From: Arcobacteraceae bacterium
GTDB taxonomy: Bacteria > Campylobacterota > Campylobacteria > Campylobacterales > Arcobacteraceae
Length of the DNA stretch: 28,863 nucleotides
Assembly: GCA_048268245.1 (NCBI GenBank)
Contig: JBLWVX010000033.1
Span: forward strand, 1-28,863
Direction of reading: 5' to 3'
The first letter of the stretch is position 1. Each line of letters starts with the position of its first letter. Made by a program: the position numbers and the translations under genes. Below, in pieces: positions 26,571 to 28,863 of this stretch. The notes beneath the pieces were generated by a model. The model saw only the letters and a program-made list of their open reading frames with translations, made no database searches and had not been told where the DNA came from.

Positions 26571-27038
26571 TTAAGAGTTAAAAACTTTAGAAATTAACTC
26601 TTTATAGGCTCTATCTATTTTAGAGTTTGCTTCTTCAATAGACTCACTATTATTTAACTGTGTTGATAAAACAACATTTAAACTATCTTCAATAGAATCT
26701 TCATCAGCAAATACTTCTACTTCATTTATTTTAGAGTATTGCTCAGAAATAAGTTTATTGAAATCTTCAATATCCATAAGCTCATCTTTATCTAAAATCT
26801 CAATAGATTTTGAAATAAATGCTTTATCATTTTCTTTGAACATATTTAATGAATATGTATCGTTATCGCAGTAAACTTCTACATTATCACAAATATCTGT
26901 ATTTTTTAATTTATAAAAATCACTTATATATTCTTTTTGAATACTTACAACTTCTACTATACTTTGATCTATAAAATTTCTTGTGCTGATAACTGTATCA
27001 TTAAGATAAACTTCCTTACCAATAATTCTTAGACTCAT
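26571..27038 (-). CDS. Hypothetical acidic protein
   Basis: 155-aa ORF with AGGAG RBS; D/E-rich; no family recognised. Confidence 0.72.
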   Translation of the reverse strand: MSLRIIGKEVYLNDTVISTRNFIDQSIVEVVSIQKEYISDFYKLKNTDICDNVEVYCDNDTYSLNMFKENDKAFISKSIEILDKDELMDIEDFNKLISEQYSKINEVEVFADEDSIEDSLNVVLSTQLNNSESIEEANSKIDRAYKELISKVFNS

Positions 27039-27108
27039 TTATGGCTCCTATGTTTTTATAGTATAATTTTACCATGTATAGGTGCAAGGGTGTGTCGCAA
27101 AACTGCTA

Positions 27109-27129
27109 TAATTTGTAATTTACAAATTA
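27109..27129. repeat. Perfect 10-bp inverted repeat in the long intergenic region
   Basis: TAATTTGTAA-T-TTACAAATTA. Confidence 0.6.
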
Positions 27130-27416
27130 GTATTAGTTTTAAAATTTTATTACAAACCTCATTATTTGGCTGTTATATTTAATGTTATTTAGCAATTGTA
27201 AAATAATGAAAGTATAAATTTTTTGACTTTATTGTTTATAAAATAGTCTTCTTTTTAATGAATTTCTTTATATAATTTTTGTTTATAGCTTGAATTGCTA
27301 TTTTATTTTTGGATTTTTGCTAAAAATACTGCTTTGTTTTTACGAAATATCTTTTTATACTAATATATCTATTTTTTAGTATAATATATTTATTGATTAA
27401 ATTGAAAGGATAAAGT

Positions 27417-27731
27417 ATGAATACTCAAGTTTTAGAAAAACTAAAACAACTAAAACCAAAACTTCAAGATGAAGGCTTTGAGTTAATTGGTGTTTTTGGT
27501 TCTTTTGCTAGAAATGAAGAAAAACTTGATAGTGATATAGACATACTTTATCAAATAAAAGATACAAATGAATATCTAAAAAAATATTCAGGATGGGATA
27601 GTATCCTTCATATAGTAGAAACAAAAGAACTTTTAAAAAAAGAGCTAAATAGAGATGTAGATTTTGTAGATAAATCTAGTTTAAATAACATTGCTAATAG
27701 ATACATACAAAAGGATTTAGTATATGTCTAA
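27417..27731 (+). CDS. Minimal nucleotidyltransferase (MNT) antitoxin, MntA-like
   Basis: 'GVFGSFARNEEKLDSDIDIL' (GSX10DXD) and 'RDVDFV'; 104 aa. Confidence 0.9.
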   Translation: MNTQVLEKLKQLKPKLQDEGFELIGVFGSFARNEEKLDSDIDILYQIKDTNEYLKKYSGWDSILHIVETKELLKKELNRDVDFVDKSSLNNIANRYIQKDLVYV

Positions 27732-28041
27732 AGCAAGAATTGAAACTATTTTAAAATATATAGATGACATTGAATATATTGTTTCAAATTATAATGGAGT
27801 TGTAAATACCCTAGAGGATAGAATAGGAAAACACTCTTTACTTATGTGTCTTATGCAAATAGGTGAAAATCTAAATAAGCTAGACTCTTCAAATGAAAAT
27901 CTAAAAGATGCTGTAAAAGGAGCTTATGCAGTAAGAAACTTTATAGCTCATGATTATGAGGGAATAAATCTAGCACTAATAGAAAATATAGTTAGAAATC
28001 TTCTTCAACCTTTGAAAGAAGAACTGCTTAAAGAGTTGTAA
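27724..28041 (+). CDS. HEPN/DUF86 ribonuclease toxin, HepT-like
   Basis: 'LMQIGE' and 'RNFIAHDY' (RX4HXY); overlaps the MNT gene by 8 nt. Confidence 0.88.
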   Translation: MSKARIETILKYIDDIEYIVSNYNGVVNTLEDRIGKHSLLMCLMQIGENLNKLDSSNENLKDAVKGAYAVRNFIAHDYEGINLALIENIVRNLLQPLKEELLKEL

Positions 28042-28086
28042 ATATATCTTTAAAAGTTAGTTAAGGAATCTTTTATAGTAATATTA

Positions 28087-28092
28087 TATAAT
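28087..28092 (+). promoter_or_regulatory. -10 box (TATAAT) of the putative retron transcript
   Basis: TATAAT ends 4 nt before the first arm of the ncRNA terminal repeat; TTAAG at 28061-28065 upstream. Confidence 0.55.
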
Positions 28093-28096
28093 TAAA

Positions 28097-28255
28097 TAAT
28101 AAAGTCAATGGCTATTAAATAGTTTTTTTAATGTTTTGTGATCCACTTAACTCAAATCTATTAGTTTATTAGACTCATAAAAGAAACTCTTCATCTTCAA
28201 ACAACTCACCTGTTATTTAAAGATAAATATTTTCTTTTAAGCATTGGCTTTATTA
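28097..28255 (+). ncRNA. Retron msr-msd non-coding RNA (predicted)
   Basis: Terminal inverted repeat TAATAAAGTCAATG (28097-28110) / CATTGGCTTTATTA (28242-28255) gives 13 WC pairs plus one U-G. G28111 is unpaired directly after the 5' arm. A long in-register hairpin 28178-28205/28212-28239 lies next to the 3' arm. The element sits directly upstream of a retron-type effector. Confidence 0.8.
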
Positions 28256-28265
28256 GGATAAAATT

Positions 28266-28863
28266 ATGATACTTAATATACTTGCTTCAAATAAAAAAAT
28301 TTCTATTCCTAATAACTTAAGACTATTAATTTTTGGTGGTGCATTAAATAGTAATTGTTTTAGAGATAAATTCTTGCAACAATTAAAAAAGAGGAATAAC
28401 TATTTAAGTGTTATACCTGATAAAATTAACTACTTTGATATTTCTTCCCAAAAATATGATTTAATAGAAAAGGAAACTAGACTTTTTGAAAATTCTGACA
28501 TCTTAATTATCATTCCTGAATCTCCAGGTTCATTTGCTGAGATTGGTATGGTTGCTTCTATGATTAATAATCATAAAAATAATGCTGAAAAAGAAAAACA
28601 TGCAAAAAAAATATTAATTCTTTTAGATAAAAAATATAAATATGATGAATCATTTATTAAAAATGGACCTGTTAAAATTATTAAAACCTATGGAGGTAAA
28701 AGCTTTAATATTGATTATGAATCAAATGATTTTTCTTATATCTTTAAAAATATTTTAGTTAATAATAAAACTTCAAATAAAGTATCATTAAGCGATACTG
28801 TACAAGATACAAAAGAACTTTTTTATATAAACTGTATAAAAATATTAATTTATATCTATTATC
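28266..28863 (+). CDS. Retron type II-A effector (Ec86/Ec73/St85-family NDT/N-glycosidase-like), 3'-truncated by the window edge
   Basis: Open frame from ATG 28266 (AGGA RBS) to the window end, 199 codons. It reads 'RLLIFGG...FRDKF...DLIEKETRL...DILIIIPESPGSFAEIG...KILILLDKKYKYDESFIKNGPVKII', closely paralleling the Ec86 effector as I recall it: 'IFLCGG...DVIILFPESPGSFTELGAF...SFINYGPVRLL'. Confidence 0.85.
   Translation, partial: MILNILASNKKISIPNNLRLLIFGGALNSNCFRDKFLQQLKKRNNYLSVIPDKINYFDISSQKYDLIEKETRLFENSDILIIIPESPGSFAEIGMVASMINNHKNNAEKEKHAKKILILLDKKYKYDESFIKNGPVKIIKTYGGKSFNIDYESNDFSYIFKNILVNNKTSNKVSLSDTVQDTKELFYINCIKILIYIYY

Follow-up and report, generated by a model that had tools for sequence, protein, structure and literature searches.

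An AT-rich nested-repeat element beside an NDT effector gene in an Arcobacteraceae bacterium, very probably the msr-msd gene of a divergent type II-A retron

Results

Genes and features at the locus

The DNA analysed here (the window, 28,863 nt) is the complete contig C33 of genome G000, from an Arcobacteraceae bacterium, and it ends inside an effector gene. Retrons are bacterial anti-phage systems in which part of an RNA is copied into a small hairpin DNA. A putative retron element of ~160 bases lies immediately upstream of the effector gene, and its upstream neighbours are genes for an MNT nucleotidyltransferase (27417-27731) and for HepT (HEPN; 27724-28041), whose stop and start overlap. 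The following features were assigned.

28087-28092, plus strand: -10 box TATAAT, the likely retron promoter, read from the sequence
28097-28255, plus strand: putative msr-msd gene, ~160 bases
28097-28110, plus strand: a1, the 5' arm of the terminal RNA stem, TAATAAAGTCAATG, which pairs with a2
28111, plus strand: predicted branching (priming) G, unpaired and opposing G28241, with a role taken from retron biology
28112-28175, plus strand: msr, the predicted retained RNA part, weakly structured overall
28133-28151, plus strand: conserved msr stem-loop, GUU-UU-GUG / AUC / CAC-UU-AAC, kept by RNAalifold
28176-28241, plus strand: msd template with a 30-position stem (arms 28178-28205 and 28212-28239, loop 28206-28211)
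28165-28241, minus strand: predicted msDNA (cDNA), 5' end at ~28241, 3' end at ~28160-28180, ~62-82 nt, its extent set by analogy
28242-28255, plus strand: a2, the 3' arm of the terminal RNA stem, CATTGGCTTTATTA, directly abutting the hairpin-closing G28241
28255-28258, plus strand: ribosome-binding site AGGA, 7 nt before the ATG at 28266, touching the end of a2
28266-28863, plus strand: N-terminal 199 codons of the NDT (St85/RcaT-like) effector gene, cut by the contig end
28515-28547, plus strand: PESPGSFAEIG motif of the effector, aligned to the Ec86 effector

The 199-residue effector piece matched three PADLOC NDT_II-A models (best E 2.6e-22) and the Ec86 retron effector in the PDB (E 3.7e-10, with PESPGSF-E-G aligned), and these matches indicate an N-terminal NDT-like domain. 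One deposited variant of the Ec86 effector carries Ala in place of the Glu of PESPGSF-E-G. Scores against the NCBIfam 'retron St85 family effector protein' (effector member of the equivalog-level effector and RT pair NF038232/NF038233) were 75.3-82.8 bits, with 82.8 bits for the window's piece, compared to a cut-off of 100. No match was found in the local Pfam copy. In the protein database the family label was PF28093, and the most distant match was named 'retron St85 family effector protein'.

Two retron-type reverse transcriptases (RTs) were found in genome G000. One of them, a 306-aa ORF, occupies the very end of contig C12, where upstream of it an 83-codon frame runs open to the contig end. 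The RT ORF matched PADLOC RT_II-A (E 1.9e-46), Pfam RVT_1 and 13 retron RT chains in the PDB, and its best named family was the retron St85 RT, at 170 bits against an NCBIfam cut-off of 235. Since effector and RT both score below the NF038232/NF038233 cut-offs, the system is a divergent relative of St85 and not an St85 equivalog. The catalytic motif YSDD aligned to YADD of Ec86, and in region Y the ITG of RPYITGLIP aligned to VTG of Ec86. Passages of PMC7736814 give VTG in region Y (G most conserved) and NAXXH in region X (H most conserved) as signatures of retron RTs. Region X of the C12 RT reads NATAY instead of NAXXH, and the H is also missing from the Kva2 (SAYAF) and Ec86 segments in the same alignment.

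An intact locus from the same genus (L005) contains, one after the other, the ncRNA and the genes for an NDT of 285 aa and an RT of 306 aa, and its ncRNA has 3 differences from the window in 246 nt. Judged from this locus, the window end (28863) and the C12 end (73307) are separated by only ~6 nt (three codons, HKR), and the two frames are compatible. The comparison thus shows that the operon runs ncRNA, then NDT, then RT, and that the G000 copy is split over two contigs. The analysis reunites a retron that assembly had divided; with a truncated effector and its RT on another contig, it might escape defence finders that work from proteins. Type II-A effectors carry a C-terminal DNA-binding (winged-helix) domain; the 83-aa C-terminal effector piece on C12 had no PADLOC match, and the NCBIfam alignment of the full L005 effector extends to residue 260 of 285.

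The MNT/HepT toxin-antitoxin pair and the retron form a small defence islet, with ordinary chromosomal genes farther upstream. One public run (X3) gave a contig that is ~98.6% identical over HepT and departs after 28042, just past the HepT stop codon, and a second contig that continues into the retron; the departing contig may represent another allele at the left boundary of the retron cassette. A simple empty-site allele was not supported, since the 200 nt that follow the RT stop did not contain the divergent letters of this contig.

Nested architecture of the element

The initial annotation had described terminal arms nested around a hairpin, and a script run over the window reproduced the arms exactly: 13 Watson-Crick pairs and one wobble (T28105:G28247). 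Just inside the a1/a2 stem lies the G28111/G28241 mismatch, also as described, which leaves G28111 unpaired directly 3' of a1; the opposition that follows is C28112/A28240. The priming of retron RTs from the branching G, set out in passages of PMC7736814, is the basis for the role given to G28111.

The hairpin pairs in register between 28178-28205 and 28239-28212, with the 23 Watson-Crick pairs, 3 C/A oppositions (28192, 28198, 28202), 2 C/T oppositions (28187, 28189) and TCACCT loop that had been reported. Beyond an A/A opposition, an extra C28176-G28241 pair closes the msd stem. The remaining part of the element, the msr, had been called weak, in agreement with the fold of 28111-28177 at -6.1 kcal/mol (z -0.28), no better than shuffles.

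No terminator-like site was found by scan between the element and the effector gene. Because AGGA touches the last base of a2, it is conceivable that the a1/a2 stem, or its loss on processing, influences effector translation.

Conservation among related cassettes

Among 184 genomes of the bacterial family, 4 carry the effector, and a phylum-level sample of 401 genomes yielded a single carrier, the genome of the window itself. Retron-type RTs were found in 30 of the 184 family genomes at E 1e-20 or better. The usable loci comprised a near-identical one (L005 in G056), two close ones (L008 in G095, and L013; effector identities to the window of 58% and 56%, respectively) and three distant ones of St85 type (L009 in G004, L139 in G007 and L140 in G066). 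L013 was the real one of 3 loci obtained by scanning metagenomes with a three-part DNA motif, the other two (L011 and L012) being chance matches. With a looser two-part motif, at least 120 stretches were recovered from viral contigs; the loci examined encode neither NDT nor RT (tblastn, 133 loci). Protein-guided scans of metagenome and viral contigs yielded no relative, and neither did the plasmid collection.

L008 and L013 have a common layout of TATAAT, a1, GGC, the TGTTTTGTG...CACTTAAC stem, a hairpin abutting a2, a2 itself and AAGGA. The GGC after a1 is invariant in all four close sequences (window, L005, L008 and L013), and a G stands likewise directly after a1 in L009. TATAAT occurs 0-7 nt upstream of a1 in four loci (window, L008, L013 and L009). 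The a1/a2 arms are kept in L005, L008 and L013, with a stem of 11-16 bp in L008 and L013.

Hairpins of the window, L008 and L013 span 30 positions each, counted from the closing C-G. Hairpin covariation was assessed with an in-register script because MAFFT could not share one register across lineages. Between the window and L008, 10 pairs are the same, 9 are changed on both sides, none is changed on one side, and 11 are unpaired in one or both. The 5' arms of these two hairpins are identical at 13 of 30 positions (counted from the pairing table), and columns of the whole-element alignment (window with L008/L013) are on average ~80% identical. Retrons typically show such rapid divergence of the msd with its shape preserved. 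L008 and L013 differ in their hairpins by one swap of T-A to C-G and one repair of C/A to T-A. The close ncRNA type is represented by three independent lineages.

The arms and the msr stem of the close relatives show only conservation, not covariation: 13 of 16 a1/a2 pairs never vary, and the covariation score of the close set (a1/a2 plus msr stem) was reached by 256 of 500 shuffles. The initial annotation had looked to homologous loci for conserved or covarying arms and hairpin; the arms and hairpin are indeed kept, the hairpin with compensatory changes, while the arms of the close set do not covary. A covariance model, which it had also proposed, was built from four sequences (R1) and gave one match in each of its 3 source genomes only, among 151 family genomes, so that its specificity was shown and no new sequences were gained; the arms were without significant covariation. 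The one small stem at 28133-28151 was the conserved hairpin resolved in the msr. All six of its Watson-Crick pairs are invariant in the four close sequences and its loop varies; there is no covariation in it, so its structure is a predicted one, and it is a candidate RT recognition hairpin.

At the distant loci, the hairpins of L009/L141, L139 and L140 have 29-30 positions and sequences unrelated to that of the window. Stem length is steady, at 28-30 positions, across six NDT-linked loci. L009/L141 carries 12-bp terminal arms followed by G (scan), a stem analogous to a1/a2 and unrelated to it in sequence. L139 and L140, St85-type retrons with RTs above the NCBIfam cut-off, showed no qualifying terminal arms by scan, and none could be made out by eye. 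By eye, msr motifs like those of L009 were seen in L139 and L140, and a conserved GCATCTTAAAAGTA follows their hairpins, which are of completely different sequence.

When 30 family RT loci were scanned, arms of at least 12 bp were found only at the three known NDT loci (L141, L156 and L157). Six further matches had arms of 8-9 bp, some mostly G-U, and were not trusted. The element was seen only alongside NDT-RT cassettes. Rfam gave nothing relevant at E up to 10 within 27000-28863, and nothing at E up to 0.1 in L008, L009, L134 and L135.

The public runs listed for the region included no RNA run; contigs of these runs contained two variants within the element, A28114G and T28259C, and no informative stem changes. 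A28114G is found in L005 and three public runs; it turns the A-U pair 28114/28132 of the minimum-energy fold of the whole element into G-U.

Neither in L008 (1486-1510) nor in L013 (minus strand, after a2) does an ATG, GTG or TTG precede the conserved effector N-terminus, and both have an ATA 6-7 nt after AAGGA. Among 28 database homologues of the effector, 9 are called at 185-217 aa, from an internal Met past the catalytic motif. Translation of the toxin gene may thus begin at a non-canonical start codon.

The retron could in principle be a decayed or silent remnant that has inherited its architecture and now makes no msDNA, or has lost its defence. The RT and effector scores under the curated NCBIfam cut-offs, the replaced histidine of region X (NATAY), the lack of a canonical start codon for a full-length effector in L008 and L013, and the five mismatches in the msd hairpin could all be read this way. 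However, both ORFs are intact and stop-free in four loci at 53-58% identity, YSDD and the PESPGSF-E-G of the effector are retained, and the pairing of the hairpin has been upheld by nine compensatory changes, with one mismatch repaired between L008 and L013. Decay is therefore very improbable, and a maintained retron agrees better with these observations.

Strand asymmetry of the hairpin

The hairpin had been described as more stable on the cDNA strand. Folding of both strands with RNA and DNA parameters agreed with this: the DNA fold of the hairpin alone reached -12.8 kcal/mol on the complementary strand compared to -6.6 kcal/mol on the sense strand, and its RNA folds reached -24.4 and -10.8 kcal/mol, respectively. 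For a 77-nt candidate msDNA (minus strand, 28241 to 28165), the DNA fold was -12.8 kcal/mol (z -4.69), and none of 200 shuffles was as good. The minus strand is the preferred one for DNA folding in the window and its relatives L008 and L013; L009, with its nearly perfect stem, shows no such preference.

The contrast in wobble pairs was likewise as noted earlier, the C/A oppositions of the msd being G-T in the cDNA and the sole a1/a2 wobble being U-G on the plus strand. Across six NDT-linked hairpins the count of sense G-U pairs is 0, and C/A-type oppositions (G-T on the cDNA strand) number 3, 3, 2, 0, 1 and 1. Because L008 and L013 share two of these, the comparison amounts to ~8 independent wobble cases versus none. 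The ends of the element thus tolerate RNA-type wobble and its core DNA-type wobble on the opposite strand, which is exactly what a retron would predict. The polarity of the wobbles serves as an internal check on the hairpin acting as DNA. In the untrusted candidates with 8-9 bp arms, found next to RTs of other types, the hairpins carry sense G-U, so the asymmetry is not demonstrated as general.

A bolder reading of the same mismatches, which we consider doubtful, is that those of the msd stem were selected at the DNA level and do not reflect decay, the imperfect, AT-rich msDNA hairpin being a tuned sensor surface for the effector or for phage enzymes that act on DNA. If so, the opposite wobble polarity of a1/a2 (RNA) and msd (DNA) would provide a usable sequence-only signature with which to find and orient retron templates.

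A strand preference of this kind might also come from a minus-strand antisense sRNA, or the element might be a plus-strand 5'-UTR regulator of the effector, in either case not an RT template. The whole element folds better as minus-strand RNA (-42.2 kcal/mol, z -5.42) than as plus-strand RNA (-31.4 kcal/mol, z -3.05), a minus-strand promoter-like site at 28290-28263 could start such an RNA, and the contact of a2 with the ribosome-binding site of the effector would suit a leader. A minus-strand-favoured hairpin within a plus-strand operon is, however, what a retron msd itself predicts. Promoter-like sites are not enriched in the consensus scan (8 sites versus 6.2 expected, not above shuffles; the listed sites exclude the TATAAT at 28087-28092), and the -10 box conserved in four loci precedes a1 on the plus strand. 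A minus-strand RNA would have A/C in place of the U-G wobble that a1/a2 form on the plus strand, and the element occurs only with NDT-RT cassettes. An antisense or leader RNA is accordingly given very little weight, and an RT template remains the favoured reading.

One further observation concerns public run X4, in which an assembled contig of ~48-fold depth starts at 28180, the base of the msd stem, and the window left of 28180 is without contig cover. The 22 letters that precede 28180 in this contig are what we take to be sequencing-adapter sequence. The contig start was rejected as an msDNA end; contigs cannot show molecule ends, and a coverage hole proves nothing.

Comparison with shuffled sequences

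To estimate chance expectations, the whole 28.8-kb window was shuffled 200 times with dinucleotide content preserved. In the real sequence, a repeat search listed 126 inverted pairs (at least 13 nt, within 250 nt), the msd hairpin being the fourth longest. A 14-bp outer stem of equal quality, at a spacing of 100-200 nt, was seen in 95 of 200 shuffles (mean 1.13, compared to 3 in the real window), and the arms alone therefore prove nothing in this AT-rich DNA. A single one of the 200 shuffles produced a hairpin with at least 23 of 28 Watson-Crick pairs, and none produced arms nested around such a hairpin. A genome-wide search found the element once in its own genome. For all the inverted pairs and the commonness of the outer arms, then, neither chance repeats of an AT-rich intergenic region nor the termini of a small MITE-like mobile element have more than a negligible probability, given a nested form absent from shuffles, conserved across genera with compensatory change and present in single copy.

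Discussion

Identity of the element

The sequence data show the architecture of the element, its conservation with compensatory change, its strand asymmetry and the retron type of both neighbouring genes. We conclude that 28097-28255 is very probably the msr-msd ncRNA gene of a type II-A retron with the order ncRNA, NDT effector, RT. The msr-msd interpretation of the initial annotation is upheld by the adjoining NDT effector and retron RT, and by the recurrence of the nested layout at related cassettes whose hairpin sequences differ. The lineage appears to be a divergent, very AT-rich NDT-type retron that is merely undescribed, the retron kind itself being ordinary and retron-type RTs being common in the bacterial family.

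Comparison with known retrons

According to passages of PMC7736814, the ends of a retron ncRNA hybridize via inverted repeats and enclose 1-3 msr hairpins and a long stable msd stem-loop. The element shares the terminal repeats and the long msd stem beside a2 with this generic msr-msd (Mestre et al. 2020, in the same passages), but supports one small msr hairpin and has no Rfam match.

The gene order of Retron-Sen2 is given as msr-msd, effector, RT in a passage of PMC11701397, and the window locus shares this order with Retron-Sen2 (St85) and its type II-A1 relatives Vc81, Ec73 and Vm85. It also has the NDT/RcaT-like St85 effector family in common with Retron-Sen2, and its ncRNA combines terminal repeats with a long msd stem and a G directly behind a1, as retron ncRNAs do (passages of PMC7736814). 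In contrast to St85 itself, effector and RT fall below the curated St85 cut-offs. Compared to St85-type proteins of the same bacterial family, the effector is only ~31% identical, and the ncRNA is without sequence likeness to the St85-type ncRNAs of L009, L139 and L140. The element further differs from the Retron-Sen2 group in its extreme AT-richness, its five msd-stem mismatches and its Arcobacteraceae host.

Retron-Eco1 (Ec86), of type II-A3, provides the only solved effector homologue (7v9x chain C), with which PESPGSF-E-G is shared, and its RT aligned with that of the window system, including YADD/YSDD and VTG/ITG. The relationship is nevertheless distant (RT E 2.6e-18; effector aligned over residues 21-155 only), and the RT clade is different (Table 1 of PMC7736814).

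A possible mode of action

Transcription, priming from G28111, the msDNA ends, toxin neutralization and phage defence are all steps that we infer, following the general retron scheme in passages of PMC7736814. The promoter with the -10 box at 28087-28092 would transcribe the ncRNA, the effector gene and the RT gene (on C12) together. Transcripts would start within the first bases of a1, a few bases past the -10 box; the effective a1/a2 stem would then probably be 11-13 bp, which agrees with the 11 bp kept in L013. Pairing of a1 with a2 would present the unpaired G28111 to the RT, which would dock, probably, on the conserved msr stem at 28133-28151 and prime from the 2'-OH of G28111. The template would be copied leftward from ~28241, with a stop near 28160-28180, before the msr. 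The expected product is a branched msDNA of ~62-82 nt, consisting of a 30-position AT-rich hairpin with three G-T and two G-A oppositions in its core, and a short 3' tail.

In Retron-Sen2, a complex of RT and msDNA is reported to sequester the effector RcaT until methylation of the msDNA (10.64898/2026.10.13.758329). If the present system works like Retron-Sen2 and Retron-Eco1, its RT-msDNA complex would keep the NDT-like toxin inactive, and a phage that modifies or degrades the msDNA would free the effector and thereby stop cell growth. We infer from this analogy a toxin-antitoxin logic like that of Retron-Sen2.

Implications

The analysis assigns a function to an unannotated intergenic stretch, and leaves the understanding of how retrons work unchanged. 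Full-text literature searches yielded no paper that names both 'retron' and 'Arcobacter' in title or abstract, and 2 papers in which the two words merely occur; an earlier entry in the supplement of the main retron census may exist. Short, naturally mismatched msDNAs may interest users of retrons as in-cell DNA donors.

Genome G000 contains a second retron, with an RT (L004 1318-2385) whose best match is PADLOC RT_III-A (E 1e-65). This RT is preceded by a 311-aa ORF without a family match. Between ORF and RT, at ~27710-27877 of contig C15 (L134 3211-3378), 20-nt arms (90%) surround a 24-nt hairpin (88%). These nested repeats resemble another msr-msd, and their a2 arm overlaps the called RT start.
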